Shown here in pieces: positions 3,253 to 64,000 of a stretch of DNA of 64,000 bases (the first letter of the stretch is position 1; every line of letters starts with the position of its first letter). The stretch is from an uncultured Desulfovibrionaceae bacterium (GTDB lineage: Bacteria; Desulfobacterota; Desulfovibrionia; Desulfovibrionales; Desulfovibrionaceae), in assembly GCA_964371505.1 (NCBI GenBank), contig CAYJNG010000001.1, forward strand, positions 86 to 64,085, read 5' to 3'. The position numbers and the translations under genes are program-made. Under the pieces are notes generated by a model. It saw only the letters and a program-made list of their open reading frames with translations, was not told the origin of the DNA and ran no database searches.

Positions 3253-3378
3253 AACTGTCCTGAAAGGCTTAATATAGCGTTAACGTTCAGAGGTAACTAT
3301 GCCAGAAAAATGCTTGACGTACAAGCAGAAAATTTGTAATTGAGAATTTATCTTAATAAGCATTCCTTGGAGGAAATC

Positions 3379-3561
3379 ATGCAAGACCAAGTATTAAAAG
3401 CCATGCAAGATGCCGGTAAGCCTGTACGCCCCGGTGATATAGCCAAAGCCTTAAATATGGACAGTAAAGATGTTTCTAAGCATATAGCTGAACTTAAGAA
3501 AGGCAATAAAGTGCATTCACCTAAGCGCTGCTACTATGCAGCAGGCCCCGCACCCGAATAG
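3379..3561 (+). CDS. Small winged-helix DNA-binding protein (60 aa)
   Basis: GGAGG lies 6 nt upstream of ATG 3379, so I trimmed the track start at 3340. The pattern PVRPGDIAKALNMDSKDVSKHIAELKK fits a helix-turn-helix. An intrinsic terminator follows. Confidence 0.6.
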   Translation: MQDQVLKAMQDAGKPVRPGDIAKALNMDSKDVSKHIAELKKGNKVHSPKRCYYAAGPAPE

Positions 3562-3565
3562 TAGT

Positions 3566-3600
3566 AAAAACGAGCCCTTTTTTTTTAAGGGCTTTTTTTA
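3566..3600 (+). terminator. Intrinsic terminator
   Basis: AGCCCTT / AAGGGCT stem followed by TTTTTTT, immediately after the stop at 3561. Confidence 0.6.
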
Positions 3601-3627
3601 TACGCAAAAAACACCTAAGGAGCTTTT

Positions 3628-3969
3628 ATGTCGCAAACATTACACATTTTGTGGGTCAATGATAATCCAGTCACGGCAGAGCTTATGGTTTTTATGTATG
3701 CCACCAATTCCTTGCGTAAAGGCTGGTGGGATGAGGTGCATCTTATAGTGTGGGGTTCTACAGCTAAGCTTTTATGCGAAAACACGCGCATGCAAGAGCT
3801 TTTGCGTGAGTTTCAAGCTGAAGGCGGAACCGTATCAGCCTGCCGCGCTTGCGCGGAAAAATTGGATAAAGTGGCTGAGCTTGAAGCCATGGAAGATGTG
3901 GAAGTGCTCTTTATGGGGCAGCCCTTAACACATATTATAAAGGGTGATGATAAACTTATTACGCTATAG
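3628..3969 (+). CDS. DsrE/DsrF-like family protein
   Basis: 113 aa. Size and pattern (HILWVNDNP...MVFMYATNS...VHLIVWGSTAKLL) resemble small DsrE-fold proteins. This is recalled, not searched. Confidence 0.5.
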   Translation: MSQTLHILWVNDNPVTAELMVFMYATNSLRKGWWDEVHLIVWGSTAKLLCENTRMQELLREFQAEGGTVSACRACAEKLDKVAELEAMEDVEVLFMGQPLTHIIKGDDKLITL

Positions 3970-20670: not shown

Positions 20671-22737
20671 ATGCAAGTTCAGCTTTGGGGCGTGCGCGGT
20701 TCTTTAGGGAGTGGTTGCAGCTCTTCCATGCGCTATGGGTGCAATACCTCTTGTTACACCGTGGAGGCGCCGCAGTCTCCCTATATTATTTTAGATGCCG
20801 GTTCTGGCATTCGAGCCTTTGGCAGCGCCATTGCCAAGGCACCGCGTGTAAAAAAGTGCGTGATTTTTTTAACTCATGGTCACTGGGACCATGTGGCAGG
20901 TTTGCCTTTTTTTGAGCCCTTATATTTGAATGATTGGGATATTACCATTTATGCCCCTGAGGCCATAGGCGCATTGGAACCGCAAGCGTTTGTACAGCGT
21001 CTTTTTAATACCTCATTTTTCCCTGTGCCGTGGGAGCGCTTAAACTCTAAACCTAAGATATTGCCCTTGCATGAGGGGCAAGTGGTGGCTGTGGAAGGAG
21101 GTGTGCATGTTTCTGCGCATAAGGCCAGCCACGGCGGGCATGAAACGCAAGGGCTCTTTGCGGCGGCGTACCGTGTGGAGCATGAAGGCCATGCGGTATT
21201 TTATAGTGGCGACCATGAACTGGGAGAAAATCCGCAAGAGCTGGATTTGTCCTCTTCCTTTTTTACAGGCTTGCGCCATGCTGATGTGGCCATTTTAGAT
21301 GCGCAATATACGCTGGAAAATTATAAAAAGCATGTGGGGTGGGGGCATTCTGCCATGGAGCAATGGCCGCCCATTTTGCGCAAGCTAGGGGTAAAAACCT
21401 TTGTGCCCACGCATTACGCGCCAAGTTCTTCCGATGCCATGCTAGACACCATGTGCAGTAAACTCTTGGTGCAATTTCCTGAGCTGGAAACCTCCATGCG
21501 CATGGCTTATGAAGGGCTTATCTTTACCTTCCCGCAAGCAAGTAGCCATGTGAATGATTGCGCTCCGGGGGCGTGTAATTGTGAAAATTGCACCTTTTCC
21601 ACGGAGTTATCGCATACTCCGGATTTAAGCTCCGTCCTTGATAGCTTGCTCATGCGCGCCAGACAGTTGAGCAAGGCCGATGCCGGCACCATTTATTTGG
21701 TAGAAGATGACGAGCTTGTGTTTTCCTATTCGCATAATGATACGCTTTTTACCCATTCACAAGCGGCGCGGCAGCAATATTTAACGGCACGCTTGCCCAT
21801 GACGCCGCACTCCATTGCCGGCTATGTGGCTTGCCACGGCACTGTGTTAAACATTCCCAATGTGCGCTGCATACCGGAAGGCATGCCCTATGCCTTTAAT
21901 GATTCTTTTGACAAAAAAACAGGCTATTCCACTGTATCCATTTGTGCCTTGCCTTTATTTTCGCAGAAAAAAAAGCTTTTGGGCGTTATGCAAATTATTA
22001 ACTGCATGCATGAAAATGAGCCTGTGCCTTTTTCTTTTTCCATGGAGTCGGCCCTACGTGAAATTTGCTTCATTGGAGCTCAAGCCATTGAGCAGTCCTT
22101 GGTGACTAAGGATATGCTTTTACGCATACTAGAAACGGCTCGCTTGCGAGACCCCGACGAAACGGGCCCGCATGTGGTGCGCGTGGGGGCCATGGCGGCG
22201 GAATTATATCATCATTGGGCAGAAAAAAATGGTGTGGATATTGTTGAAATAGCAAGTATAAAAGCAAGTTTACGCTTGGCGTCCATGCTGCATGATGTGG
22301 GCAAGGTGGGCATTTCTGACCGTATTCTTAAAAAGCCTGGTGCTTTTACGGATGAAGAGCGTAAAATTATGCAAACCCATTGCGCCATAGGGGCTGCTAT
22401 TTTTAAAGATGTAACGCGCACCCTAGACAGACTTTCGGCCAGCATTGCCTTACATCACCATCAGCGTTGGGATGGCACAGGGTATACGGGTGATGATGCA
22501 CCCCCTCTTTCCGGAAAGGATATTCCCTTTGAGGCGCGTATAACGTCCATTGTGGATGTGTTTGATGCCTTGGTGTCGGAGCGTTGCTACAAGCCGCCCT
22601 TACCTTTTGAGGAGGCGGTGCGTATTATCCAAAGGGATGCCGGAGCTGCTTTTGATCCGGAAATGGTGCAATGTTTCATGGAAATTTTAGACACCATTCA
22701 GGCCATTCAGGAAAAATATCAAGAAGAGCCCGCGTAG
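20671..22737 (+). CDS. Multidomain signalling phosphodiesterase: MBL-fold hydrolase + GAF + HD-GYP-type HD domain
   Basis: The N-terminal domain has LTHGHWDHVAGLPFF (HxHxDH). The middle region is GAF-like. The C-terminal domain has MLHDVGK and HHHQRWDGTGYTG, an HD-GYP signature with GYT in place of GYP. Confidence 0.8.
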   Translation: MQVQLWGVRGSLGSGCSSSMRYGCNTSCYTVEAPQSPYIILDAGSGIRAFGSAIAKAPRVKKCVIFLTHGHWDHVAGLPFFEPLYLNDWDITIYAPEAIGALEPQAFVQRLFNTSFFPVPWERLNSKPKILPLHEGQVVAVEGGVHVSAHKASHGGHETQGLFAAAYRVEHEGHAVFYSGDHELGENPQELDLSSSFFTGLRHADVAILDAQYTLENYKKHVGWGHSAMEQWPPILRKLGVKTFVPTHYAPSSSDAMLDTMCSKLLVQFPELETSMRMAYEGLIFTFPQASSHVNDCAPGACNCENCTFSTELSHTPDLSSVLDSLLMRARQLSKADAGTIYLVEDDELVFSYSHNDTLFTHSQAARQQYLTARLPMTPHSIAGYVACHGTVLNIPNVRCIPEGMPYAFNDSFDKKTGYSTVSICALPLFSQKKKLLGVMQIINCMHENEPVPFSFSMESALREICFIGAQAIEQSLVTKDMLLRILETARLRDPDETGPHVVRVGAMAAELYHHWAEKNGVDIVEIASIKASLRLASMLHDVGKVGISDRILKKPGAFTDEERKIMQTHCAIGAAIFKDVTRTLDRLSASIALHHHQRWDGTGYTGDDAPPLSGKDIPFEARITSIVDVFDALVSERCYKPPLPFEEAVRIIQRDAGAAFDPEMVQCFMEILDTIQAIQEKYQEEPA

Positions 22738-22747
22738 CTTTTTCTGT

Positions 22748-24997
22748 TTAGTTTTTTTCTGTATAGCTCCATACGCCGTCCCATTGTTGTGGCGGTGCGG
22801 CTAAAAGCAAGGCAGAGCGTTGCGTGTATACCTTGTACAATAAGGTGTGCGGAAAGGCTTCATGTAAGTGCTGAAATATGTCATGGGCTTTTTGAAAATA
22901 GCCGCTTACATAGTGTTGCCTGCCTTCTAAAAATTGTTGTAGCTCTTCTTCCATGCTTGCCTTGTGACTTTGGGCAAGGGGCAAGCAAATTTCCACAGGT
23001 TGTTGTTTGCCTTTTACGCGAATGGCGTCAAGAGGAAGAAAATAAGGAACGCTTTCCGCAAGGGGAGCGTTTTTTTCTTGGGCATAGCTTTGGCAAAGCT
23101 GTGCTGTTTCTGCTGAGGTGAGAATGGGCACACCGTACACCGCGCAAAGGCTTTCAAGCCTTGCGGTAATGTTTACGCTATCGCCTATACAAGTATAATC
23201 CAAAAGCTCTGCGCTGCCCATATTGCCCACAAAAACCTTACCTGTATGTATGCCTATGCCTGTGCTAAAGGAGATATCAAGCTCTTTTTGTAAGGTTATA
23301 TTCAGTTCTGCGAGGGCGTTTTGCATGGCTAAAGCGCTGTTGACGGCGCGTAGGGGGTGTTGCTGCACAGGCAGGGGCGCGTTCCAAAAAGCCATGACAG
23401 AATCGCCGATGAATTTGTCCACCGTGCCTTCGTTGGCATGAATAATGGCGGTGATGGGAGTGAAATAGCGGTTCAGTGCATGAACCACTTCATGCGGCTT
23501 AAGACGCTCCGATAGCGAGGTAAAACCCCTAATGTCCGTAAAAAGCAAGGTGACTGTGCGCTCTTCACCTGCCAATACGGCTTCGCCTTTTTCCACAATG
23601 CGTTCCACCATATGCGGGGCAATATAGCGGGTAAATGCCGTACGTAGGGTGCGCTTTTGCTTTGCTTCTTGCCAAAAGCGTACAGCCAGTAACAACACAG
23701 CTTGCGAAAAAATAATAAGTAAGACGTATAAAGGAGAAAGGTATATACCGTCATTAAATGCGTCCCATGTGCCAAAAAGGATGAGGCAGGTAAGCGCCAC
23801 AAGCACAGGCATATAGGCCGATGCCGCCACCATGGCAAAAATAAGCGCCCCTACAATGCCTACACTTACCATGGCTGTTTTTTGGATTTTGGCATGGGAG
23901 GGAGGTATTTGTATAAAGCGCTGACTTAAAATAGCATCTATAACGGTGGCATGTATTTCTGCACCGGAGTAAATGGCGTCAAAGGGGGTGGGGCGAATAT
24001 CTAAAAGGCCGGGGGCTGAGGTGCCCACAATAAAAACGCGATGTTGCAGTTTTTCAACAGGAATTTTTTTTTGCAAAATATCCACAGCGCTAAAGGTAGG
24101 ATAATAATGGCGTGGCCCGCGAAAGGGAATCATAAAGTAGCCGTTGGGGTTTACTGGTATGGTATATGTGCCCATTTTCAAGGAGCTAAGCCCCAAGGGG
24201 CCGCTGTTTAGCCCTATACTTTGCAGGCCCATGGCACGCATGAGCGTGCGCACCGATAAGGATAAGAAAATACGATCATCCACTTGCGTTAATAAGGGCA
24301 CGGAGCGGCTAATGCCGTCGGGGTCCGGCTCGGCATTGAGAGAGGCTAAAGGCGCCTTAGCGCGTAATGCAGCCAAAGGAAGGGTGACCCCTTGCCCTTT
24401 GGGTATGAAAGACGTGGCTGGTAAGCTATTTGGCGGGTTGTTCATCCATACCCCATCGGGGGGAGGCATATCTTGAGGAAGAGGGCTTACTTTGCCTTTA
24501 AATTGCGTAAAAGAACCTAATACCACAGGGCTTTGCGCTATGCTAGCCGCTAAAATGCTGTCATTATCATACATATGGGCGGGAATGCCCTGCAAGGGTA
24601 AGGGGATATTGTAATGCTGCTCAAAGGATTTTTGCACGTGGGTAAGGGAAGTATTATCCGGCTCGGAAAAAATAATATCAAGCCCAATGGCTGCGGCGCC
24701 GGCCTCGGTAAGATTATCCACTAACTTTGCCACCACATGACGTGGCCAAGGCCATTGGCCCACGGCGGCAAGGCTGGCATCGTCAATATCAATGAGTGCT
24801 GGCGCAGGGGAAGGCGTGCCGCCGCCATGAGCACGCAAGAAGATATCGTATATATTTCTATCGGCTTGTTGCAAAAGTGTAGGTTGCACCATGTATAGGG
24901 CAAAAAAAAGACTAAGTATGCCAAGGCCAAGGCCAAGGCGCAGACCCCTTTCGCGAAAGGTACGAGATGTTTTGCCTTTTATATCCAATATGCCCAT
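22748..24997 (-). CDS. CHASE2-domain membrane-bound class III adenylate/guanylate cyclase
   Basis: An N-terminal TM helix, a periplasmic domain of about 330 aa, then three TM helices. The cyclase core reads LLFTDIRGFTSL, DKFIGDSVMAFW, GIHTGKVFVGNMG and IGDSVNITARLES. The Lys (DKFIGD) and Asp (LDYTCIGD) suggest ATP specificity. The start is set at ATG 24997, which has AAGGA upstream. Confidence 0.85.
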   Translation of the reverse strand: MGILDIKGKTSRTFRERGLRLGLGLGILSLFFALYMVQPTLLQQADRNIYDIFLRAHGGGTPSPAPALIDIDDASLAAVGQWPWPRHVVAKLVDNLTEAGAAAIGLDIIFSEPDNTSLTHVQKSFEQHYNIPLPLQGIPAHMYDNDSILAASIAQSPVVLGSFTQFKGKVSPLPQDMPPPDGVWMNNPPNSLPATSFIPKGQGVTLPLAALRAKAPLASLNAEPDPDGISRSVPLLTQVDDRIFLSLSVRTLMRAMGLQSIGLNSGPLGLSSLKMGTYTIPVNPNGYFMIPFRGPRHYYPTFSAVDILQKKIPVEKLQHRVFIVGTSAPGLLDIRPTPFDAIYSGAEIHATVIDAILSQRFIQIPPSHAKIQKTAMVSVGIVGALIFAMVAASAYMPVLVALTCLILFGTWDAFNDGIYLSPLYVLLIIFSQAVLLLAVRFWQEAKQKRTLRTAFTRYIAPHMVERIVEKGEAVLAGEERTVTLLFTDIRGFTSLSERLKPHEVVHALNRYFTPITAIIHANEGTVDKFIGDSVMAFWNAPLPVQQHPLRAVNSALAMQNALAELNITLQKELDISFSTGIGIHTGKVFVGNMGSAELLDYTCIGDSVNITARLESLCAVYGVPILTSAETAQLCQSYAQEKNAPLAESVPYFLPLDAIRVKGKQQPVEICLPLAQSHKASMEEELQQFLEGRQHYVSGYFQKAHDIFQHLHEAFPHTLLYKVYTQRSALLLAAPPQQWDGVWSYTEKN

Positions 24998-25169
24998 GAA
25001 TAGTCCTTTACATACATAAAAACCCATGTGGCTGTGCTTTGGCACAGCTTTATTGCGGTTAAAGTCTCACGGAGCATGGAGGCCAGTCAATGTAAAAAAA
25101 GCGTAGCAAGCATGGCCTGAGGCACCTTATACTTAGGCGCTAAAATGTGTAAAAAATACGTATAATAAA

Positions 25170-26276
25170 TTATGTGTTAAGAACTTCATGCCTTTTTACA
25201 CAGTTTTTACACAAATTTGTGGTGGGATTTCCTGCGGCATGCTGAGCGCGAAATTGTATATAATTTTCCTTTTGCCAAATATGCAGGGCGTTTTCTTCAT
25301 TCACATTGCCAAAGAGGCATGTGCTATCTTGCGCCTTTTGTGAGGGTACTTGTAAATACACACAAGGGGAAATGCTACCTTGAGCACTTATGTATAAGCT
25401 TTTTTGAATGTTTTCACGGCAAGCGCGGGCCATATGGGGGCTTGGTAAGGCATAGTGTACGTCTATATGATACTCTTGAGCTTCGGCCTGCACCTTTTGT
25501 AAAAGAGCATGGGCTTTGGCTAAAAGAGCCTTTTGTTCAGGTGTGTCTTTGGCCGTGAGGGCTAAGGCCGCTTGGGCTGCATCGGGGGCGTAATCTAAGG
25601 TGCTAATGATGGCGGCGTGCATGCCAAGTTTGTGTAAAAGCTTGGGTAGAGCAAGCACAGCTTCAAGGCGATCTGCCAATAAAAGGTAGGCCAAGTGAAT
25701 TTCTAGATGTACGGCCATATGTTTTTTGCGCAGCTCTTGAAGCAATAAAATTTTTTCGCATACGGTATCAAAATCAGCCCCCACGCGTACGCTATTGCTG
25801 ATGGCGTCCGTGCCTGCCAAAGAAAAAGCCAGAATATCTATGCCGCTATCTATTATCTTTTTGCAGGTTTTTTCGTGCAAATGCAGGGCGCAAGATGTGG
25901 AGGATACAAGGCAGCCGGCTTTACGCGCAAAGGCCACAAAATCAAAGAAATGCGGGTGTAAGAAGGGTTCTCCCCATCCTTGCAAATGCACGCGCGTGCT
26001 TTGTTTAAGCAAGGGCCACAAATTAGCAAAGGTATGGGCTTGCATATGCTGGCCTTGCCATGTGTGGGCATCAGTGGTGTGTGGGCAGTATGTGCATTTT
26101 GCGGCGCATTGGGAGGTTATTTCCACTTGTAAACAGTCTAGTGGGCGCACTTGTGGTTTAAAGAGCTCTTTTATCATTTCTCCTATGCCGGCTTCCCGCA
26201 GCTCCTTATGGTGTAAAATGTCGCAGGGCTGTGCATAGTTTTGGTGTTGTGGCGATATGGGAAAGGTAAGTGGCAT
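25170..26276 (-). CDS. Radical SAM enzyme with a SPASM/twitch-like C-terminal Cys cluster
   Basis: CAAKCTYC (CX3CX2C), GWGEPF, and the C-terminal pattern ISPCVYL...FGNV...CKNCVK. Confidence 0.8.
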   Translation of the reverse strand: MPLTFPISPQHQNYAQPCDILHHKELREAGIGEMIKELFKPQVRPLDCLQVEITSQCAAKCTYCPHTTDAHTWQGQHMQAHTFANLWPLLKQSTRVHLQGWGEPFLHPHFFDFVAFARKAGCLVSSTSCALHLHEKTCKKIIDSGIDILAFSLAGTDAISNSVRVGADFDTVCEKILLLQELRKKHMAVHLEIHLAYLLLADRLEAVLALPKLLHKLGMHAAIISTLDYAPDAAQAALALTAKDTPEQKALLAKAHALLQKVQAEAQEYHIDVHYALPSPHMARACRENIQKSLYISAQGSISPCVYLQVPSQKAQDSTCLFGNVNEENALHIWQKENYIQFRAQHAAGNPTTNLCKNCVKRHEVLNT

Positions 26277-26285
26277 GGGTATTCC

Positions 26286-27218
26286 TTAAGAGAAAAGGCG
26301 GGCAAGCCAATGAGAAGGTTTTTTAGTTTTTTGTACGTCTGCAACGCGCCATGAGCTTTGTACCAGAGGGAGCAAAGGCTGTGCGCCCCATTTTTCTTTA
26401 AAAAAGCGTATGCCACTGTGTATGCCAAGGCCAAGATTGCATGAGCCATAGCCACGCTGTGCAGCCTCTTGTAATAAGGCCATAAGAAGAGCCTCGGCGG
26501 TGCCGGGTGTGGCCTTAGGGTGGCGAAAGGCAAACATGTAAAAAGCCGTGTGCAGTGAGGTGAAGTCTGCCACGGTGCAGCCCATAAGGGCGCCGCTGTG
26601 CACGTCATAGGCAGAAAATAAGCGCGCTTGCGCTACGTTGCGACAATACATTCCCACACGTTGAAAAATACTGCTCATTTCTTTACTGAGCCCTTGGCGG
26701 CTTACATAGTGGAGCATAAGTTCTTGGTGGGCCCCTGTCCATGCGTGCTCGCCTTGGCTTTGCTCTATGCGTAGGTGCGCTAAAGCACGGCGACACATGG
26801 AAAGCACATGGGGCAAGTTTTTTTCTTCTAGGGGCAGGGGTAAAAAATAATAGGCATCGTTATAGCAGGTTGTTTCATGCGGCGTACAATGAGGGTGCAA
26901 GGGAGGACGCAGGGGGGCAAGCACGGTAATATGCTCTATGTGCGGGCTTTGCTGCAAGTGCTGTATGCACAGATGTAGTTGGGCTTCATGGTCGGGTGCC
27001 AAGGAGAAGGCATGGGCAGGCCAAGATGAGCAATCGTAGGCCACAAGGGTGGCATGCCCTGCGTTTTCATGCACAAGAAAGTTACCCACGCTATAACTTG
27101 TGGCTGCGCTAACGGCCTGTACATAGGGTATAAGTTGTTCCGGCACCAAGGCTTGTAAGCTGTATTGCTGCGCATGCATGGCAGATAAAGGGGTATGAAG
27201 GGGGCTGTGCTGCGGCAT
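26286..27218 (-). CDS. FemABX/MprF-C (DUF2156)-like GNAT-fold protein, paralogue of the N-terminal half of the upstream gene product
   Basis: 310 aa. It shares DAYYFL and LGLGIHSGIRFFKEKWGAQP...SW with the 27221-29152 product. The G-x-x-FK-x-KWG ending resembles aa-tRNA-dependent transferases; this is recalled, not searched. Confidence 0.45.
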   Translation of the reverse strand: MPQHSPLHTPLSAMHAQQYSLQALVPEQLIPYVQAVSAATSYSVGNFLVHENAGHATLVAYDCSSWPAHAFSLAPDHEAQLHLCIQHLQQSPHIEHITVLAPLRPPLHPHCTPHETTCYNDAYYFLPLPLEEKNLPHVLSMCRRALAHLRIEQSQGEHAWTGAHQELMLHYVSRQGLSKEMSSIFQRVGMYCRNVAQARLFSAYDVHSGALMGCTVADFTSLHTAFYMFAFRHPKATPGTAEALLMALLQEAAQRGYGSCNLGLGIHSGIRFFKEKWGAQPLLPLVQSSWRVADVQKTKKPSHWLARLFS

Positions 27219-27220
27219 AG

Positions 27221-29152
27221 TTATATACGGCCTTGTTTTTTTATTTTATGGCGCAGGGCATGGCGCCATGTGGGCTGCACTTGTGTAAGGGTAAAGCCAT
27301 CTTCTTGCAGCATGGGGCGTAAATTGAGCATATGCGCCGTACCCACAAAAACCGCCGCGCGCCCTTGCTCTAAAAATGGCCGCATGCGCCGGCGAAAGCG
27401 CTCGTCTCGTTTATTGATAATGGTATGCGTGCGGGTGGGAAACTCGGCACTGGTGCCCATAAGGCGCAATAAATCTCCCTGCAAGTACGCTTGTACATTT
27501 TTACGTATCATGGAGGGCCACGTGTGGCAGTTTTGAAAATACCGTATGACACGCTGCGGCGGCACCGCATTTAATGAGGCCAACTGCTCTTCTAAGCTTT
27601 CCATGGCCACCACATTTTTTCCCATTTCATGGGCTAGATGCCATGCTTCCAAGTCCACCGACTGTTGCCACCCTTTACGCTCTAAAAAGCTTGTCCAAAG
27701 GGTGAAAAGAGCCGTCCATGGGCGGGTGTGGGCTAAGTACCACCGCACATCCACACGGCGTTTTGCCTGCATATTGAGTAGACGCGCCCAAAAACCTTCG
27801 GGCCCGCGTACCATGCGCTCCAAAGCGCGTATTTCGCTTTCTGTCAGTAAGGGTAAGAGCGGCTGTTGCTCAGGGGTAAGTGTTTTACCTTGTAAGCTTA
27901 CTTCTTGTAGGCTTTGTGCATCCAAGGGGCCTTCAAAAAGCACCGTATCCACTTGGTCAAAAAGTTTACGAAAATCTCGCTCAAAGGAATAGCAAAAAAA
28001 GTGTGCTGAGCCGCCAATCCACGAAATAGCATCGCCTTTTTGCACACGCCATAGCATGGCATGGGGGCGCTGTTCCGGTAGGGAGGCTAAAATCTGCCTT
28101 TTGGATAGCCCGCTTAAAAGATGTATGTTTTGTATGGCTTGGCTGGCGCCTTCCTTGTTAATGGCGCCGGAAGGCTGAGCCGCAGGGGCCGCGCCAAGGG
28201 CTGTAAGAAAAAGCCTTTGCACATCCTTGGTGAGGTTTTCTGCGTGCGGGGCTTCCATCCATGAGGCACGCATATAGGGTATGGTGGGCACGCCGCCCCA
28301 TTTACGCTTAAAGCGGGAAATACCTTCATGCACGCCTAAGCCCAAGTGAATGAAGGTCTTCTTTTCCTCGCGGGCCATATGCAGCATATGGGCAAAAAGA
28401 GCATCCACGGCATGGGGTATGTAATGGGTGCGAGAGTGCGCCCCCAGCACATAGGCGCAAAAGGTGGCGGGGGCAAAGTCTAATAATAAGGTGGCGGTGA
28501 GGTGCCCCTCATGTGTATATGCGTTGAGCAGACGTAAATGGGTGTGCGGCGTTCCAAGTACGCTGGGGGTGGCGAGGAAGAGGCGACGTACCATGTTATG
28601 CATGGGGGCGGGGTTAGACGCGGGCTTAGAGCCTGCGCTGCTACCCAAGGGGGTTGCATCATGCCCTTGCCTGCCTAAAAATTCCGTCCAAAGGCGACGA
28701 TGCTCCAAGGTAAAGTCTTGTCCCACATCAATACGTATGCGCTCATGGGCTTTGGCTATGGGCCTGCGTAACTTGTGTGGCACAGGGGCGTGCGCATCTA
28801 AGGTATAAAAAACATCTTTTTCTTGCACATGGGGCAGAAGTTCGGAGGGGAAATCTGGCCCTATGGCATAGCATTGTGTGGCGCCGGTGCGCGCCACGGC
28901 GGCATTTTTGGCTTGCAAAAAGTTTGGTGCTTGCAAAAAGTTTGGCGCTTGTAAAAAATTTTGCGCTGTGGGGGTGGCCTTGTCACTGTGTTTAGGCAAT
29001 AGCGGATAGCCTATGATGGTAAGCCAATCTTGCGCGCTGTAGCATAGGTAACCATCTTGCATAAAGGCCTGCCCTTGCGACACTTCGCGCATAAAGTGCA
29101 AGGAGTGTTCGGGCACGCTGGCGCGTAGGTAAAGGTCATCAGTGTCGAGCAT
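27221..29152 (-). CDS. Fusion protein: FemABX/MprF-C (DUF2156)-like domain + TraB/GumN/Tiki-type domain
   Basis: The N-terminal half has DVFYTL and LGLGVHEGISRFKRKWGGVP...SW. The C-terminal half has LWRVQKGDAISWIGGSAHF, ESLEEQL and AAVFVGTAHML, the TraB/GumN pattern. I favour the start at ATG 29152, which has GGAGA 5 nt upstream, over the track start at 29176. Confidence 0.55.
   Translation of the reverse strand: MLDTDDLYLRASVPEHSLHFMREVSQGQAFMQDGYLCYSAQDWLTIIGYPLLPKHSDKATPTAQNFLQAPNFLQAPNFLQAKNAAVARTGATQCYAIGPDFPSELLPHVQEKDVFYTLDAHAPVPHKLRRPIAKAHERIRIDVGQDFTLEHRRLWTEFLGRQGHDATPLGSSAGSKPASNPAPMHNMVRRLFLATPSVLGTPHTHLRLLNAYTHEGHLTATLLLDFAPATFCAYVLGAHSRTHYIPHAVDALFAHMLHMAREEKKTFIHLGLGVHEGISRFKRKWGGVPTIPYMRASWMEAPHAENLTKDVQRLFLTALGAAPAAQPSGAINKEGASQAIQNIHLLSGLSKRQILASLPEQRPHAMLWRVQKGDAISWIGGSAHFFCYSFERDFRKLFDQVDTVLFEGPLDAQSLQEVSLQGKTLTPEQQPLLPLLTESEIRALERMVRGPEGFWARLLNMQAKRRVDVRWYLAHTRPWTALFTLWTSFLERKGWQQSVDLEAWHLAHEMGKNVVAMESLEEQLASLNAVPPQRVIRYFQNCHTWPSMIRKNVQAYLQGDLLRLMGTSAEFPTRTHTIINKRDERFRRRMRPFLEQGRAAVFVGTAHMLNLRPMLQEDGFTLTQVQPTWRHALRHKIKKQGRI
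28911..28964. repeat. In-frame 18-bp tandem repeat x3 inside the fusion gene
   Basis: GCTTGCAAAAAGTTTGGT / GCTTGCAAAAAGTTTGGC / GCTTGTAAAAAATTTTGC, which encode QNFLQAPNFLQAPNFLQAKN on the minus strand. Confidence 0.95.
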
Positions 29153-29231
29153 ACTTTTCTCCACAAGTTTGTGCATACGAAAATCTGAGACTACTGGGAA
29201 TTTGATTATTTATAGTATAAAAAATTAGAGT

Positions 29232-29450
29232 TTGTGCAAAGAGAAAAATTCACAAAGTGGCATTTTTCCTCTGTCTAGGATGGATAAAACGTGTTTTCGT
29301 TATGTGCAGGACAAAAATATTTGTATAGAGTTTTCTACTCAGAAAAACATCCAAAGAGAGTGTTACTTGCGTTTTACATGGGCTTTTTGCTCATGGGCAA
29401 AAAGATGCCAGCTTCTGTGCCAGCGCAAGAGATGGAGTGCTAGCCCTTAA
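29232..29450 (+). other. Candidate small transcript: Cys-rich sORF (56 aa from ATG 29280, 72 aa from TTG 29232) or an sRNA/leader
   Basis: The open frame ends 18 nt before a strong plus-strand terminator. The peptide is MDKTCFRYVQDKNICIEFSTQKNIQRECYLRFTWAFCSWAKRCQLLCQRKRWSASP. There is no convincing Shine-Dalgarno, so coding status is unproven. Confidence 0.25.
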
Positions 29451-29467
29451 AGCTTTTCTTTTATATC

Positions 29468-29494
29468 AAGCCCCGACTGCTCGGGGCTTTTTTG
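29468..29494 (+). terminator. Intrinsic terminator (or attenuator) 70 nt upstream of the dCMP deaminase-rib operon
   Basis: AAGCCCCGA-ctgc-TCGGGGCTT followed by TTTTTG. Confidence 0.75.
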
Positions 29495-29564
29495 TCCCCT
29501 TTAACACTTGGCAAAGAGGGGCTTCCTGTGTATTGTCGTGCTTTGTGTAAAATAAGAGGACTGT

Positions 29565-30020
29565 ATGGAAAGACTGCCTTGGCCAGAATATTTCATGCGC
29601 ATCGCTTATATGGTGGCAGAGCGCAGTACATGTGCACGCCGTAAGGTGGGCGCTGTTGCCGTGCGGGATAATCGCATCCTTGCTACAGGCTATAATGGCG
29701 CGCCTGCGGGCATGCGGCACTGTCTTGATATAGGGTGCTTGCGTCAGCAAATGGCCATTCCTTCTGGGGAGCGTCACGAAATTTGCCGCGCCATCCATGC
29801 AGAACAAAATATTATTGTGCAAGCAGCCACTCACGGTGTGCAGCTTGATGGAGCCGATATTTATTGTACTACCTTTCCTTGCGGTATTTGTGCAAAGTTG
29901 TTGATTAATTGTGGTATAAAGTCCATATTTTATGTGGAGTATTACCCCGATGAACTGGCTGTGCAAATGCTTCGTGAGGCAAATATTATGTGTATGCAAA
30001 TGGAGCGCCCCAAGGAGTAG
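29565..30020 (+). CDS. dCMP deaminase (ComEB-type cytidine/deoxycytidylate deaminase)
   Basis: Zinc motifs HAEQN and PCGICAKLL. 151 aa. Confidence 0.85.
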
Positions 30021-30023
30021 TTT

Positions 30024-31163
30024 ATGGAAGAAGTAACTTTTGCCAACGCCATGCGTCATGCTGCAACCCTTGCTTTGCAAGGGCGTGCGCTAGTATATCC
30101 TAACCCCACAGTGGGTGCGGTGCTTGTGCGTGACGGTGCCATTGTGGCCGAAGGGTGGCATAAAGTTTACGGCGGGCCCCATGCTGAGGTGGTATGTTTA
30201 CAAGATGCTGCAGAAAAAGGCGTTGATGCTAGTCAGTGCACTTTAGTGGTAACTCTTGAGCCTTGCCACCATCACGGTAAAACGCCTCCTTGCACGGAAG
30301 CCATTGTAAAGGCCGGCATTAAACATGTGGTTTTTGGCATGCGCGACCCCAACGAAAAAGCCGCCGGCGGCGCTGCTTATCTTGCCTCTCAAGGTATTAA
30401 GGTAGAAGAAGGCGTGGAAGCGCAGCTGTGCCAAGATCTTTTGGCGGATTTTCTTTGCTGGCGAGAGAAAAAGCGCCCCTATGTATTGCTCAAGCTTGCT
30501 TCTACTTTAGATGGGCGCATAGCTACACGTTCTGGGCATTCGCAATGGGTGAGCAGCCAAGGTTCGCGTAATAGGGTGCAGCTTATGCGCAGAAAGCTTG
30601 CGCAAGTGGGCGGAGCCATTATGATTGGCGGAGGTACCTTTCGAGTGGATAATCCGCGCCTTACTGTGCGCTATCCCGAAGGTGAAGACGGCCCGCAACC
30701 CCTTGCTTGTATTGTCACTTCTCGTTTACCTGTGGTAAGTCTTGATAATACTTTATTGCAAACACGCCCTAAGGACGCCATATTCTTTTCCACTCCTGCT
30801 GGGGCGGCTTCTCCCACAGCTAAAGCCCTAGAAGAAATGGGCGCCAGAGTGTGGTCACAGGCGCCGCAAAGCGGGGCTGTGCGTTTGCCGCAATTGGATA
30901 TTTTGCTTGAGCGTCTTTTTACGGAATTAAATTGTCCTTATGTACTGTGCGAAGGCGGCGGAAAGCTTGCTTTAAGCCTGCTTGAGCTTGGCCTTGTGGA
31001 TGAGTTTCACCTGCACCTTGCCCCCTGCATTTTGGGGGATAATGAAGCCAAACCTCTTTTTGACGGTAAGAGCCCCATGAATATGTCTGAAGCGCTTTCC
31101 TTACGCATTAGCGATTATGAAATGCATGGCGAAGATATTCATATAGTATTGAGACCCAAATAA
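30024..31163 (+). CDS. ribD: Bifunctional riboflavin biosynthesis deaminase/reductase RibD
   Basis: HAEV and TLEPCHHHGKTPPC deaminase motifs, plus a C-terminal reductase domain (KLASTLDGRIA). Confidence 0.93.
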   Translation: MEEVTFANAMRHAATLALQGRALVYPNPTVGAVLVRDGAIVAEGWHKVYGGPHAEVVCLQDAAEKGVDASQCTLVVTLEPCHHHGKTPPCTEAIVKAGIKHVVFGMRDPNEKAAGGAAYLASQGIKVEEGVEAQLCQDLLADFLCWREKKRPYVLLKLASTLDGRIATRSGHSQWVSSQGSRNRVQLMRRKLAQVGGAIMIGGGTFRVDNPRLTVRYPEGEDGPQPLACIVTSRLPVVSLDNTLLQTRPKDAIFFSTPAGAASPTAKALEEMGARVWSQAPQSGAVRLPQLDILLERLFTELNCPYVLCEGGGKLALSLLELGLVDEFHLHLAPCILGDNEAKPLFDGKSPMNMSEALSLRISDYEMHGEDIHIVLRPK

Positions 31164-31828
31164 TGTTTACAGGACTTATTCAAGGGCAGGGCACCATTAC
31201 TGCCATACAAGCTCAAGGTGCTGATAAGCGCCTTTCTTTACGCACGCACTTTGTGCTGGACGCTTTGGAAATGGGCGAATCCATAGCCGTGAACGGCGTT
31301 TGTTTAACGGTAGAAAGTGGGAGTAGTCATTCCTTTACAGCCTTTGTATCTGCTGAATCCCTCACGCATACTAATATAGGCCTTTTATCGCAGGGTGATG
31401 TGGTAAATCTGGAGCGAGCTTTGGCCGTGGGCCAGCGTCTTGGCGGTCATATAGTGAGCGGGCATGTGGATTGTGTGGCCACCGTGGCAGATATTAGCCT
31501 TGTGGGGCAGTCGCGCTGCATACGTTTGCACTTTCCGCAGCAGTATAGCCCAGAAATTATTTCCAAGGGCTCTGTCACCTTGGACGGTATTAGCCTTACC
31601 GTAAACGCATGTGGCCCTGACTTTTTGGAAGTAAATGTTATTCCAGAAACATGGTCTGTTACCACTGTGGGTGCGTGGAAGGTGGGAGCAAAGGTAAACC
31701 TAGAAACGGATATTATCGGTAAATATGTGCGGCATATGCTTAGTCCTTTTGTTACTACGGGGCAAGGCGTAACGCAAAAGCAAAGTGCCATTACCGAAAG
31801 TTTATTACAGCAACACGGATTTTTATAA
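31163..31828 (+). CDS. ribE: Riboflavin synthase
   Basis: The N-terminus MFTGLIQGQG and an internal duplicated lumazine-binding repeat (GESIAVNGVCLTV / GSVTLDGISLTV). Confidence 0.93.
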   Translation: MFTGLIQGQGTITAIQAQGADKRLSLRTHFVLDALEMGESIAVNGVCLTVESGSSHSFTAFVSAESLTHTNIGLLSQGDVVNLERALAVGQRLGGHIVSGHVDCVATVADISLVGQSRCIRLHFPQQYSPEIISKGSVTLDGISLTVNACGPDFLEVNVIPETWSVTTVGAWKVGAKVNLETDIIGKYVRHMLSPFVTTGQGVTQKQSAITESLLQQHGFL

Positions 31829-31855
31829 AATCGCATTATTGTAAGGAAATATATT

Positions 31856-33094
31856 ATGCCATTGTGTACCATAGAAGAGGCCATTGAGGATATTCGCCAA
31901 GGTAAAATGATTATCTTGGTGGATGATGAAGACCGTGAAAATGAAGGCGATCTTACCATTGCTGCAGAGCATGTGACACCAGAAGTTATTAATTTTATGG
32001 CTAAATACGGCCGTGGTCTCATTTGTTTACCGCTAAGCGCTGAGCGCTGCGACCACTTGAACCTTGGGCTTATGACACAGCGTAATGGCTCAAAATTTGG
32101 TACCAATTTTACCGTATCCATTGAAGCGCGTCATGGTGTGACCACCGGTATTTCTGCCAGTGATAGAGCCACCACCATTTTAGCTGCCGTGGCCGATGAT
32201 GTGCGCCCCGAAGATATTGTAACCCCTGGGCATATTTTCCCTTTACGCGCCCGCCCCGGCGGCGTGCTTGTGCGCGCAGGACAAACCGAAGGCAGTGTGG
32301 ATCTTTCCGTATTGGCCGGTTGCAAAGATGCAGCGGTTATTTGCGAAATTATGAATGACGATGGCGAGATGATGCGTCTGCCGGAGTTGGAAGTTTTTGC
32401 TGCAGAGCATGGATTAAAAATTGCTGCAGTGAAGGATCTTATTCGTTATCGCATGCGCCGCGGGCAGGTTTCTGTTCGCCGTGTGGGTGAGGCGCATTTG
32501 CCCTCTGTTCATGGGGACTTTACCATAGTAGCCTATGAAAATGATGTGGATAGCAGTGAGCATGTGGCCATTGTGAAGGGAGATATTTCCGGCACAGACC
32601 CTGTGCTTGTGCGTGTCCATAGTGAGTGCCTAACCGGCGATGCTTTAGGCTCCATACGTTGCGATTGCCGCGGGCAGCTGGCTGCTGCTTTACAGCGCAT
32701 AGAAAAAGAAGGTCGCGGTGTGGTCTTATACATGCGTCAGGAAGGGCGTGGCATTGGTCTTGCCAATAAAATTCGCGCTTATGCTTTGCAAGATCAAGGC
32801 TATGACACTGTAGAAGCCAATGAAAAGCTTGGTTTTGCGCCGGACTTGCGTGATTACGGCACCGGAGCGCAAATATTAGTAGATTTAGGCATTGGTAAAA
32901 TGCGCATGATGACCAATAATCCTAAGAAGATTGTAGGATTAGAAGGTTATGGTATTGAAATTGTGGAGCGCGTGCCCATTGAAACTAAAGCTTGTGCTTG
33001 CAATACGGGATATTTGCAAACCAAGAAGGAAAAGATGGGGCATTTGCTTTCTGAACTTTGTGAAGATTGTGCAGAGAAAGTAGGCGACGCATAG
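31856..33094 (+). CDS. ribBA: Bifunctional 3,4-dihydroxy-2-butanone-4-phosphate synthase / GTP cyclohydrolase II
   Basis: [11 protein letters not shown] (RibB) and [22 protein letters not shown] (RibA zinc site). Confidence 0.95.
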
Positions 33095-41390: not shown

Positions 41391-41710
41391 ATTACTAGTA
41401 AAAAAATAGTGTTTTTTCTAAATAATGTGATTTATATATCCAAAATATCCCCAAAATGTCCTGTGGTGTAAATTATTTTTTTCACAAACTGCGTAAAAAT
41501 GTTGCACTTTTGCAACCATGTATAAATAGGGGTGTAGGTACAGTGAAATACGCTAAAAAAGCAGGTCTTGGCGTGTTTTTTTATGGGTTTTTCGCTATTT
41601 TTGAAATCAGTGTTCCATGAGATTTTTTTCTCAAAATTTCTAACTCCGCTTGACCTAGGCTAATATAGATGTAAAGACTAAGTATGTGAAAATTTGCTTT
41701 AGGAGTGTTT

Positions 41711-42778
41711 ATGACAGCAGTGAATGATGAAAAGCAAGGTGTGGTGGCACAAGTATCCAAGGTATTACCGGGCATGATACTTTTTATTACTGTAGCTTTG
41801 GTTGCTTGGTACATTACTCCCATTTTAACGTCCTTACATCCCATGATTAAGAACATGAATATTAGCAACTTTATTGTTGCTATTATTTTAGGTATGGCCA
41901 TTTTGAATATTTTTGGCGTACCTGAGGTTTGTAAGCCGGGGCTACAGTTCTCAACCATTTTGACAAAAACAGGCATTGTGGTCATGGGCTGTAAATACTC
42001 CTTTGCGGGGCTTTTAAAAACCGGTACAGAAGCCATTGTCATTATAGCCGTGTTTCTTTTTGTTTCGGCTTTTGTGCTTATGTGGATAGGGAAAAAGCTT
42101 AAAATGTCTCCCTCCCTTAGTGCCTGTTTGGCGGCGGGTCTGTCTGTATGCGGTGTTTCTGCCTGTGTGGCCATTGCCCCTGCTGTACGCGCCAAAAACG
42201 AAGATATGGCCTATACCATTGCTGTAGTGCTCATGTTTGGCCTTCTGGCTTTACTAGTGTTTCCATTTGTGGGGCAGTGGTTTGAGCTTTCAGCCAATCA
42301 ATTTGGTGCCTTTGTGGGTGTGGGTGTTATTAACTCAGCCCAAGTGCTTGCAGCTGGTTTTGCCTATAGCCAAGATGCAGGCGTGGTAGCCGGTGTGTAT
42401 AACATTGGGCGCGTTATCTTCTTGCCCTTTATTGTGTTAAGCCTTGCCATTATGGTGGCTACACAAGATGCTGAAGTGCAGTCTCAAATGCAAGGCAGCA
42501 GCAAAATGAAGATGATTATAGATAAATTCCCCGTTTTCGTGGTGGGCTTTTTAGCTATTGTTACTTTAAACACCTTAGGTTTCTTAGAAACAGCAGAAGT
42601 AAAAATGGCAAGTACTTTTATGGATTGGTGTTTCTTACTTGGTTTCTCCAGCATAGGGCTTACCACGCGCCTTTCCGATATTAAGGCTGCTGGCCTTTCC
42701 GGAGCTGCGGTGGGCTTTGTAGTAGCAGGCCTTAAGGCTGTATTGGCCCTATGGGTTGTATTGTACTTCTTGCAATAA
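41711..42778 (+). CDS. YeiH/UPF0324-family polytopic membrane protein (putative sulfate-exporter-family transporter)
   Basis: About 10 TM helices. The C-terminal pattern GFSSIGLTTRLSDIKAAG resembles the YeiH family. AGGAG lies upstream of the ATG. Confidence 0.6.
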   Translation: MTAVNDEKQGVVAQVSKVLPGMILFITVALVAWYITPILTSLHPMIKNMNISNFIVAIILGMAILNIFGVPEVCKPGLQFSTILTKTGIVVMGCKYSFAGLLKTGTEAIVIIAVFLFVSAFVLMWIGKKLKMSPSLSACLAAGLSVCGVSACVAIAPAVRAKNEDMAYTIAVVLMFGLLALLVFPFVGQWFELSANQFGAFVGVGVINSAQVLAAGFAYSQDAGVVAGVYNIGRVIFLPFIVLSLAIMVATQDAEVQSQMQGSSKMKMIIDKFPVFVVGFLAIVTLNTLGFLETAEVKMASTFMDWCFLLGFSSIGLTTRLSDIKAAGLSGAAVGFVVAGLKAVLALWVVLYFLQ

Positions 42779-63741: not shown

Positions 63742-64000
63742 TTAGATTCTTGCTGTAATTTCAGGGAATACAACATAGAACATAATGTAAGCCATGGTAA
63801 GGGTAAGGAGCAAGTTAAAGCTCTGACCGCAAACATAGAGGATAACCGGCTTGCCGCCCTTGAAGTAGTGCGTAAGCTCGCGGAAGTTGGTAGCAAGACC
63901 AATGGCCGCAAAGGAGAGGTTAAAGCACCAACCACGTAAGGGTGAGGTTAAGCTCTTAATGGTACCTGCAGTGAGTAGGCCTTGGCTCATGTCAGAACCA
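63742..64000 (-). CDS. C-terminal part of a polytopic membrane protein, YeiH/UPF0324-like (5' end outside the window)
   Basis: [27 protein letters not shown] resembles the AMAALGL.T...L...G.KP block of YeiH. The frame stays open to the window edge. Confidence 0.5.

Follow-up and report, generated by a model that had tools for sequence, protein, structure and literature searches.

We analysed a 64,000-nucleotide stretch of DNA (the window) from an uncultured Desulfovibrionaceae bacterium (GenBank assembly GCA_964371505.1, contig CAYJNG010000001.1, positions 86 to 64,085), and in particular a cassette of three minus-strand genes, here called A, B and C, that lie head to tail within it (Table 1). 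A is a two-domain protein whose N-terminal half is a paralogue of B, while C belongs to the radical S-adenosylmethionine (SAM) enzymes. The A-B junction reads TAA-CT-ATG, with a 2-nt spacer, and the B-C junction reads TAA-GGAATACCC-ATG, with a 9-nt spacer. Upon rereading, the coordinates and junctions are identical to those in a preliminary description of this DNA, and the motifs quoted there are all found in the translations, namely: DVFYTL and DAYYFL; HLGLGVHEGISRFKRKWGGVP and NLGLGIHSGIRFFKEKWGAQP; LWRVQKGDAISWIGGSAHF; ESLEEQL; AAVFVGTAHML; CAAKCTYC; and GWGEPF. The close spacing, together with a gene order that is kept in other genomes (see below), indicates that A, B and C are co-transcribed. 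A promoter and terminator scan gave counts at the level of shuffled sequence and is uninformative either way. No transmembrane segments are predicted in A, B or C, and the best reading is that the pathway they would form is cytoplasmic.

Table 1. Positions of the cassette genes, their domains and related features in the window (ORF, open reading frame).
Feature	Position	Strand	Description
Gene A	27221..29176	minus	651 aa; tandem-GNAT domain at the N-terminus, TraB/GumN (TIKI-superfamily) hydrolase domain at the C-terminus; ORF, Pfam and AlphaFold
Gene B	26286..27218	minus	310 aa; free-standing tandem GNAT, paralogue of the A N-domain, apparent orthologue of GNAT2
Gene C	25170..26276	minus	368 aa; radical-SAM enzyme with abridged SPASM (twitch-like) C-terminal domain
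Tandem-GNAT domain of A, residues about 1-310	28247..29176	minus	FemX/MprF-C type; apparent orthologue of GNAT1 in unfused cassettes
Basic helix of A, residues 131-148	28733..28786	minus	follows the D121 strand; AlphaFold helix 134-146
TraB/PrgY/GumN domain of A, residues 374-632	27281..28057	minus	Pfam, whole model (1-263 of 263)
Basic helix of B, residues 131-148	26775..26828	minus	follows the D121 strand; AlphaFold helix 136-146
Auxiliary-cluster region of C, residues 286-359	25200..25421	minus	CX13GX4C, later CX2C; 74-orthologue alignment
18-bp tandem repeat, 3.2 copies	28911..28967		encodes a QNFLQAP-type triple repeat in a loop of A; Tandem Repeats Finder
PF03601 C-terminal fragment	63754..64000	minus	cut by the window end; 58% identity (tblastn) to the C-terminus of the protein at locus L004
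Short YeiH-like paralogue	41705..42778	plus	12 kb from the cassette

Domains of the three proteins

Residues 8-306 of A align with B over the whole length of B (25% identity, BLASTP E 3e-15), in agreement with the earlier proposal that the N-terminal half of A and B are paralogues. The AlphaFold models of the two proteins have a mean pLDDT of 87.0 (A) and 92.1 (B). In Foldseek searches of the PDB, the top matches of A are 4v36 (L-PGS), 5vrv (DUF2156), 7z6a and 1ne9 (FemX), and 4v34 (A-PGS), at E-values of 3e-9 to 1e-7; those of B are 9goe, 4v34 and 4v36 (MprF), 2hqy and 5vrv (DUF2156), 1ne9 (FemX), and 9wqx (Sbb17), at 5e-10 to 1e-8. The matches to the MprF synthase domain and to DUF2156 proteins have a Foldseek probability of 1.00 and TM-scores of 0.5-0.6, and Sbb17 and Sba18 are also among the best matches. 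The highest TM-scores for the B model are those to FemX (0.58-0.60). For both models, tandem GNATs that depend on coenzyme A (CoA) rank below the tRNA-dependent ones.

At the level of sequence profiles, the relatives of B are more informative than the window proteins. B itself scores 11.7 bits on the Pfam model PF09924 (LPG_synthase_C; E 0.13), below the threshold of 27.5, and A does not match this model. Among 33 aligned B homologues, 23 match PF09924 (E ≤ 0.01; best E 2.4e-9) and 15 match PF13480, and one homologue, P0270, exceeds the PF09924 threshold at 38.8 bits. Pfam FemAB is matched neither by the window proteins nor by any of these homologues, and no NCBIfam model matches A, B or the A+B and B+radical-SAM fusion proteins described below. 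A GNAT2 protein of an environmental branch (see below) gives sub-threshold matches to arginyltransferase and PEP-CTERM FemAB models, and the B-family profile pairs the B motif APPGTADALL...NLGLG with APKG...NMGMA of MprF. Against PDB sequences this profile yields only E-values of 0.13-0.37, the best match being the small CoA-type GNAT YsnE (E 0.13); P0270, the TraB domain alone, a 34-aa FK-motif peptide and two further profiles return nothing or noise against solved structures. The preliminary description had assigned the paralogous domains to a Fem/MprF-C-like fold. The PF09924 and PF13480 matches of the homologues and the structure searches bear this assignment out: when placement in an unrelated fold was looked at by structure search, the MprF synthase domain, DUF2156 proteins and FemX came out as the best matches.

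Three of the B homologues, P0040, P0069 and P0098, are tandem GNATs of ~290 aa that are publicly named 'translation initiation factor IF-2', which looks like a mis-annotation. As for the repeat-encoded QNFLQAP-type insertion (Table 1), it is unique to the window A, being missing in the 31 other sequences of a 32-sequence alignment, and sits in a low-pLDDT region of the model (blocks 61-80).

The residues that are invariant in alignments of the A N-domain include D121, H159, D233, Y242, D258 and F289-K290-x-K292-W293. Most of this set is common to both paralogues (A/B: D121, H159/H164, D233/D218, Y242/Y227 and FK.KW), the conserved GNAT block reading FK(K/R)KWG. Since the same residues are conserved in the A N-domain and in B, both look catalytically competent. 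In each protein the strand that carries D121 is followed by a basic helix. Over 18 residues, the helix of A has a mean of 4.7 K+R vs. 0.7 D+E (106 sequences) and that of B a mean of 5.0 K+R vs. 1.0 D+E (120 sequences). The net charge of the helix is about +4 in A and B and +2.8 in the environmental set; all three families have ~5 K+R per 18-21 residues here, whereas K+R make up only 10-12% overall. A basic helix located between GNAT I and GNAT II, termed alpha(+), is common to aminoacyl-phosphatidylglycerol synthases (aaPGS), Fem proteins and L/F-transferases, and was found essential in ErgS by mutagenesis (PMC8913301, PMC6103681). It should be noted that the placement of the helix between GNAT I and GNAT II in A and B was judged by position only. 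The pyrophosphate-binding loop of CoA-dependent enzymes, [QR]xxGx[GA], is conserved nowhere in A, B or the environmental GNAT families. In our reading, aminoacyl-tRNA is the candidate donor for both the A N-domain and B, with indirect support from the missing CoA loop.

The C-terminal half of A, previously proposed to be of the TraB/GumN type, indeed matches TraB_PrgY_gumN (PF01963) over the full model (E 2e-36; 126.6 bits vs. a threshold of 26.8). Across 106 sequences, H392 (in GGSAHFF), E415 (in FEGPLD), E526 and E530 (in MESLEEQ) and R582 are invariant; H615 (in VFVGTAHM) shows no variation in the 32-sequence alignment, and its conservation in the 106 sequences is 90% or higher. The free-standing TraB proteins of two unfused cassettes (loci L086 and L093) carry the same His/Glu motifs. 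The catalytic set of the TIKI superfamily comprises two His and two Glu residues, including a His-Glu pair (PMC6254334). H392 and E415 are 23 residues apart, compared with 28 residues for the His-Glu pair of Bcr135. Thus, the conserved His and Glu residues of A are candidates for such a 2His/2Glu set, with the residue-by-residue mapping being provisional.

In C, both Radical_SAM (PF04055; E 1.6e-11; 45.1 bits vs. a threshold of 29.5) and SPASM (PF13186; E 9.5e-12; 45.5 bits vs. 21.5; residues 286-359) score above threshold in Pfam, as expected for the radical-SAM enzyme with a SPASM-like Cys region that had been proposed. The CX3CX2C motif (C57, C61 and C64) and the GGE-like GWGEP motif are invariant in 74 orthologues. 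A full SPASM motif, which holds two auxiliary clusters, has seven Cys residues in the pattern CX9-15GX4C ... CX2CX5CX3C ... C. This pattern is not present in C, so that the idea of a full SPASM Cys set has to be given up: the region is abridged, and only four of its Cys residues (C286, C305, C356 and C359) are invariant in the 74 orthologues. C ends 9 residues past the terminal CX2C, and the orthologues of two unfused cassettes (L086 and L089), read directly, have the same four-Cys pattern. With four invariant Cys residues, C likely holds only one auxiliary cluster, the arrangement of twitch domains. The nearest curated NCBIfam families are TIGR04317 (116.1 bits vs. a cut-off of 380) and TIGR04311 (111.5 vs. 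400); neither C, which stays below one third of these cut-offs, nor the fused B-radical-SAM proteins reach them. By sequence, the closest solved structure is BtrN (E 1.7e-6), a twitch enzyme with a small-molecule substrate. Only ~45 residues precede the CX3CX2C motif of C, too few for a RiPP recognition element (RRE). No PqqD-like RRE is matched in A, B or C by Pfam or NCBIfam, with the limit that a divergent one in A or B could escape profiles.

Conservation and surroundings of the cassette

In a protein collection clustered at 90%, we counted 171 relatives of B and 476 of A, nearly all of the latter being full-length GNAT-TraB fusions. An exhaustive search with the B profile gave 449 clusters at 50% identity, and a scan of one genome per species gave matches in 256 genomes. 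The counts of gene order and flanking genes cover the best 80 of these 256 genomes, which are almost all Desulfovibrionaceae and include Desulfovibrio, Mailhella, Bilophila wadsworthia ATCC 49260 and D. piger. In these ~80 Desulfovibrionaceae loci, the order A-B-C is found by tblastn in essentially every locus where the contig permits. The operon was thus wrongly described as an orphan: the cassette occurs throughout the Desulfovibrionaceae, and other Desulfobacterota have it in an unfused, ancestor-like form. Neighbourhood conservation, which had been suggested as a check, shows that the three genes are co-conserved and that some of the components are fused. Single A+B proteins of 877-943 aa occur, e.g. 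in Mailhella, as do single B+radical-SAM/SPASM proteins of 615-633 aa (examples are P0179 and P0254 for A+B, at 890-910 aa, and P0252 and P0265 for B+radical-SAM, at 615-633 aa). Found in different organisms, these two kinds of fusion argue for a functional linkage of all three genes.

A distant environmental branch, from 'Deltaproteobacteria' metagenome-assembled genomes (MAGs) and sediments, consists of stand-alone GNATs of ~283 aa (at least 1080 proteins). The genes for these GNATs belong to unfused cassettes of other Desulfobacterota, which have the order GNAT1-TraB-GNAT2-radical-SAM (L086 and L089) or the variant order GNAT2-GNAT1-TraB-radical-SAM (L095), while L093 and L094 have GNAT1-TraB with GNAT2 a few genes off (six genes in L094). 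The transferase-hydrolase pair may be the minimal core of the system. The A N-domain of the window scores 149 bits against the environmental family g1 and 119 against g3; the bit scores make it the orthologue of GNAT1, and B that of GNAT2. Given this orthology and the unfused cassettes, the GNAT-TraB fusion of the window would be specific to the Desulfovibrionaceae and derive from an older system of four genes. Hence, the fusion noted in the preliminary description is indeed present in A, but it is a feature of this lineage rather than of the system in general.

Some loci depart from these arrangements. L088 and L091, also of the environmental lineage, have GNAT1-TraB and lack a nearby radical-SAM gene; in L045 and L081 this gene is found on the opposite strand, a few kb off. 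In a few Desulfovibrio MAGs, B and C are separated by inserts, namely: a small GNAT gene in L057 (7144-7668), a 470-aa transposase-like ORF in L066 (3746-5158), and repeat-rich DNA in L047 (about 3310-3870); L052 also carries an insert. Nothing is common to the inserts of these four loci.

In other lineages, the cassette is adjoined by the gene for a long (453-584 aa) membrane protein of the PF03601/YeiH family ('putative sulfate exporter'). This gene is convergent with the cassette and directly downstream of it in ~20 distinct metagenome loci, many of which are 67-78% identical and do not represent independent observations. It lies upstream of the cassette in L174 and L175, is one or two genes off in L093-L095, and adjoins the cassette in a Desulfovibrionaceae MAG (L004) and a Desulfobulbaceae MAG (L081). 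The adjacency thus survives rearrangement, which argues for a functional link. All the loci in which it was seen are L004, L081, L086, L089, L090, L093-L095 and L098-L176. By its similarity to the L004 protein, the PF03601 fragment at the end of the window looks like an orthologue of the cassette-adjacent gene, and a link to the cassette in the window genome is a possibility. In Salmonella, resistance to sulfite stress is driven mainly by YeiH (PMC12880088). The PF03601 neighbour could serve in product export or could link the cassette to the sulfur-oxyanion metabolism of these sulfate/sulfite reducers.

No other gene family was found to recur widely. Clustering of the flanking ORFs of the ~80 Desulfovibrionaceae loci gave none in more than ~10 of them, and the flanks vary by lineage: polA in a D. 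porci-type locus, bacA in a termite-type MAG, and a riboflavin operon and a CHASE2 cyclase gene in the window. The cyclase ORF (Pfam CHASE2 and Guanylate_cyc; 22748-25045, minus strand) is downstream of C, with a gap of 124 nt to its first possible start (GTG 25045) and of ~172 nt to the in-frame ATG at 24997, the latter matching the ~170 bp given in the preliminary description. It follows the cassette in only ~6 closely related loci, and was ruled out as a part of the system. Convergent with the cyclase gene is a 688-aa ORF (20671-22737, plus strand), whose HGHWDH and HD..K motifs suggest a metallo-beta-lactamase-fold domain and an HD-type domain. Divergent from A are four plus-strand ORFs (29565-33094), read by eye as dCMP-deaminase-like, ribD, riboflavin synthase and ribBA; conservation of the cassette does not extend to these genes.

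In order to find a precursor-peptide gene, small ORFs of at least 12 aa were clustered in ~70 upstream (~450 nt) and 65 downstream (400 nt) flanks. No conserved one was found: only fragments of lineage-specific neighbours recurred, with no family extending beyond close relatives. A Cys-rich ORF of 72 aa (29232-29450, plus strand, TTG start) is divergent from A, and a strong terminator-like hairpin, AAGCCCCGACTGCTCGGGGCTT, with a T-run lies just past it (29468-29489). This ORF has no counterpart in related loci and is therefore probably spurious; it was rejected as a precursor peptide because it is not conserved. A search of positions 24900-29700 for regulatory RNAs and riboswitches gave no Rfam match (E-value mode). 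An anti-phage defence system was also ruled out, as PADLOC gives only a partial pVip match to the generic radical-SAM core of C.

Candidate pathway, rival explanations and significance

Taken together, these observations lead us to propose, tentatively and at somewhat less than an even chance, that A, B and C form one cytoplasmic pathway built on two paralogous aminoacyl-tRNA-dependent transferases. GNAT1 (the A N-domain) and GNAT2 (B) would each draw an amino acid from a charged tRNA, and the amino acids would be added, probably successively, to an acceptor that is not encoded beside the cassette; a membrane lipid or small metabolite is the most likely acceptor, ahead of a dedicated precursor peptide. 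The TraB/TIKI domain fused to GNAT1 would cut the product or an intermediate at an ester or amide bond, either as a turnover partner, as for aminoacyl-lipid synthases, or in a release step. The radical-SAM enzyme, with its putative single auxiliary cluster, would tailor the aminoacylated product. In the ancestral unfused form, the long YeiH-family protein would probably move a substrate, product or by-product across the membrane. There is precedent for such coupling: aaPGS genes usually share operons with unrelated hydrolases (PMC6103681), and fungal ErdS pairs with ErdH (PMC8913301). In its fullest version, this proposal has a soluble pair of MprF-C/FemX-type transferases assembling an aminoacyl or dipeptidyl head group on a membrane lipid or exported metabolite, with radical-SAM chemistry tailoring that head group, the fused TIKI esterase setting the level of the product and the YeiH-family protein seeing to transport. 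The cassette would then represent a new class of tRNA-dependent aminoacylation system in sulfate/sulfite reducers, a version that we consider rather doubtful as a whole.

Several points weigh against a tRNA-dependent pathway of this kind. The window A and B are below every Pfam and NCBIfam threshold for DUF2156 or FemAB, and the sequence-level links of the GNAT families to solved structures are noise (E 0.1-0.4). CoA-dependent tandem GNATs (2wpw, VipF and N-myristoyltransferase) also match the models, at E-values of 1e-8 to 1e-5, and the TM-scores of the matches are moderate. The aminoacyl-lipid hydrolases known so far are extracytoplasmic, whereas here the domain is fused to a cytoplasmic synthase, an arrangement that looks like a futile cycle unless the hydrolase cuts a different bond. 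Radical-SAM enzymes with SPASM domains mostly modify peptides or proteins, and the L093/L094 lineage has no radical-SAM gene nearby. Finally, the PF03601 fragment of the window is not adjacent to the cassette, being ~35 kb from it, and YeiH, the best-studied member of this family, is tied to sulfite stress and not to lipids or metabolites.

The habitual substrates of SPASM-domain enzymes lead to one alternative, the maturation of a peptide or protein whose gene lies elsewhere: the SPASM enzyme would modify it, a TIKI peptidase would cut its leader or N-terminus, and the GNATs would extend the peptide with residues from aminoacyl-tRNA, as L/F- and arginyl-transferases do. Endopeptidase activity is established for Tiki and RRSP, Tiki/TraB-family peptidases co-occur with SPASM enzymes in predicted graspetide loci (PMC8939145), and the sub-threshold arginyltransferase match of the environmental GNAT2 would fit as well. 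The nearest curated relatives of C, TIGR04317 and TIGR04311, are annotated as metalloenzyme maturases, but C scores far too low on both to be counted with them, and BtrN, its nearest solved relative, acts on a small molecule. Other than the cassette genes, the ~80 Desulfovibrionaceae loci hold neither a conserved small ORF in the flanks searched nor a widely recurring gene family, the 72-aa Cys-rich ORF is not conserved, and C has four Cys residues only in its SPASM region. Because there is no adjacent precursor gene and no RRE-sized domain at the N-terminus of C, a peptide substrate is less likely than a lipid, and we regard peptide maturation as unlikely. Of the 'peptide or envelope lipid' tailoring that was first envisaged, it is accordingly the peptide half that loses ground.

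Alternatively, the tandem GNATs might use acyl-CoA or acyl carrier protein-bound donors, like the clavulanate tandem GNAT, VipF and N-myristoyltransferase, in which case an N-acylated compound would be made and then deacylated by a TraB-type esterase. The structural matches to these enzymes and the weak YsnE match speak for such a donor, as do the name 'GNAT family N-acetyltransferase' that NCBI gives to homologues and the fact that PF13480 (Acetyltransf_6) takes in members whose donor is unknown. This is distinctly improbable in our view, since all the top-ranked structural matches are tRNA-dependent enzymes, the pyrophosphate-binding loop is conserved in none of the three families, the basic helix is conserved, and the sub-threshold sequence matches converge on MprF-C, FemAB and arginyltransferase. 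The resemblance to FemX raises a further alternative, a cell-wall branch in which the GNATs attach amino acids to UDP-MurNAc-peptide or lipid II, and the stem peptide is then trimmed by the TraB domain and modified by the radical-SAM enzyme. FemX, FemA and FemB are successive paralogous transferases (PMC6103681), and bacA, which encodes an undecaprenyl-diphosphatase, is directly upstream of the cassette in one lineage; that neighbour is limited to this one lineage, however, with no other cell-wall gene recurring nearby, and Pfam FemAB is not matched. The taxa are Gram-negative, and we know of no interpeptide bridges in them, nor of any radical-SAM step in peptidoglycan precursor synthesis. We therefore give a cell-wall role very little credence, and continue with the two tRNA-dependent transferases acting on a lipid or small metabolite as the preferred reading.

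The components of the cassette are from known superfamilies, and no curated family or publication that we found covers A, B or their combination. A literature search found no publication describing these genes together, in line with the earlier statement that no characterised pathway has this combination. MprF, the Fem proteins and ErdS/ErgS divert charged tRNAs from translation, which alters surface charge, antimicrobial-peptide resistance and virulence. If the preferred reading is true, tRNA-dependent aminoacylation would have a new architecture here, with a soluble transferase pair joined to a TIKI-type hydrolase and a radical-SAM partner; in its fullest version, radical-SAM tailoring of an aminoacyl head group would be a chemistry not known for any aminoacylated lipid. 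Bilophila wadsworthia and Desulfovibrio piger, two gut sulfidogens studied in connection with intestinal inflammation, carry the cassette, which is also widespread in environmental Desulfobacterota. The identity of its product could reveal a new class of lipid or metabolite, a new radical-SAM reaction, and the first defined cytoplasmic role of a TraB/GumN protein in bacteria. With only 3-5 genes, the cassette is small enough to be tested directly by heterologous expression.

Comparison with known systems

Among known systems, the aaPGS (MprF synthase domain, DUF2156/PF09924) with their hydrolases AhyD, VirJ/PA0919 and PesT resemble the cassette in having a transferase genetically coupled to a hydrolase, as well as in the tandem-GNAT fold, the basic helix and the PF09924 matches of many B homologues. 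Unlike the aaPGS, the cassette proteins are soluble, with no flippase or membrane domain; there are two paralogous transferases instead of one, and a radical-SAM enzyme is added. The aaPGS hydrolases are extracytoplasmic and of the alpha/beta type, whereas the cassette has a TIKI/TraB domain that is cytoplasmic and part of the same protein as the synthase, and the window proteins are below the PF09924 threshold. Fungal ErgS is similar to the cassette GNATs as a soluble, free-standing DUF2156 tandem GNAT of about 280-310 aa with an alpha(+) helix (PMC8913301). ErdS and ErdH, the synthase for tRNA-dependent ergosterol aminoacylation and its hydrolase, share the synthase-hydrolase pairing (PMC8913301). 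The cassette differs from both ErgS and ErdS in that it is bacterial, where sterols are not expected, and has no aminoacyl-tRNA synthetase fusion, a hydrolase of unrelated fold and a radical-SAM partner.

FemX, FemA and FemB have the tandem-GNAT fold, with the highest TM-scores noted above, and are paralogues that act successively, but the cassette has no Pfam FemAB match and no conserved cell-wall genes nearby. Sbb17/Sba18/Orf11, PacB, VlmA, DhpH/DhpK and FzmI are soluble enzymes of the GNAT type, with tRNA-bound amino acids as donors and metabolites bearing an amine or hydroxyl group as acceptors. The cassette GNATs have Sbb17 and Sba18 among their best structural matches, and with DhpH/DhpK there is already a pathway that includes two tRNA-dependent additions (PMC6103681). 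The genes for these antibiotic-pathway transferases lie in large, sporadic clusters, whereas the cassette is compact and conserved across many species, with variable flanks.

The hydrolase domain of A is similar to the TIKI/TraB/PrgY/GumN/erythromycin-esterase superfamily in its full-length Pfam match and its conserved candidate catalytic His and Glu residues; Tiki, PrgY and ChaN are secreted or membrane-bound, while the cassette domain is cytoplasmic and fused to a GNAT. C differs from TIGR04317 ('tungsten cofactor oxidoreductase maturase') and TIGR04311 in scoring far below their cut-offs, in having four rather than seven auxiliary Cys residues, and in its genomic partners. What it shares with these two families and with BtrN is the CX3CX2C motif, the GGE-like GWGEP motif and the CX13GX4C pattern with a terminal CX2C.

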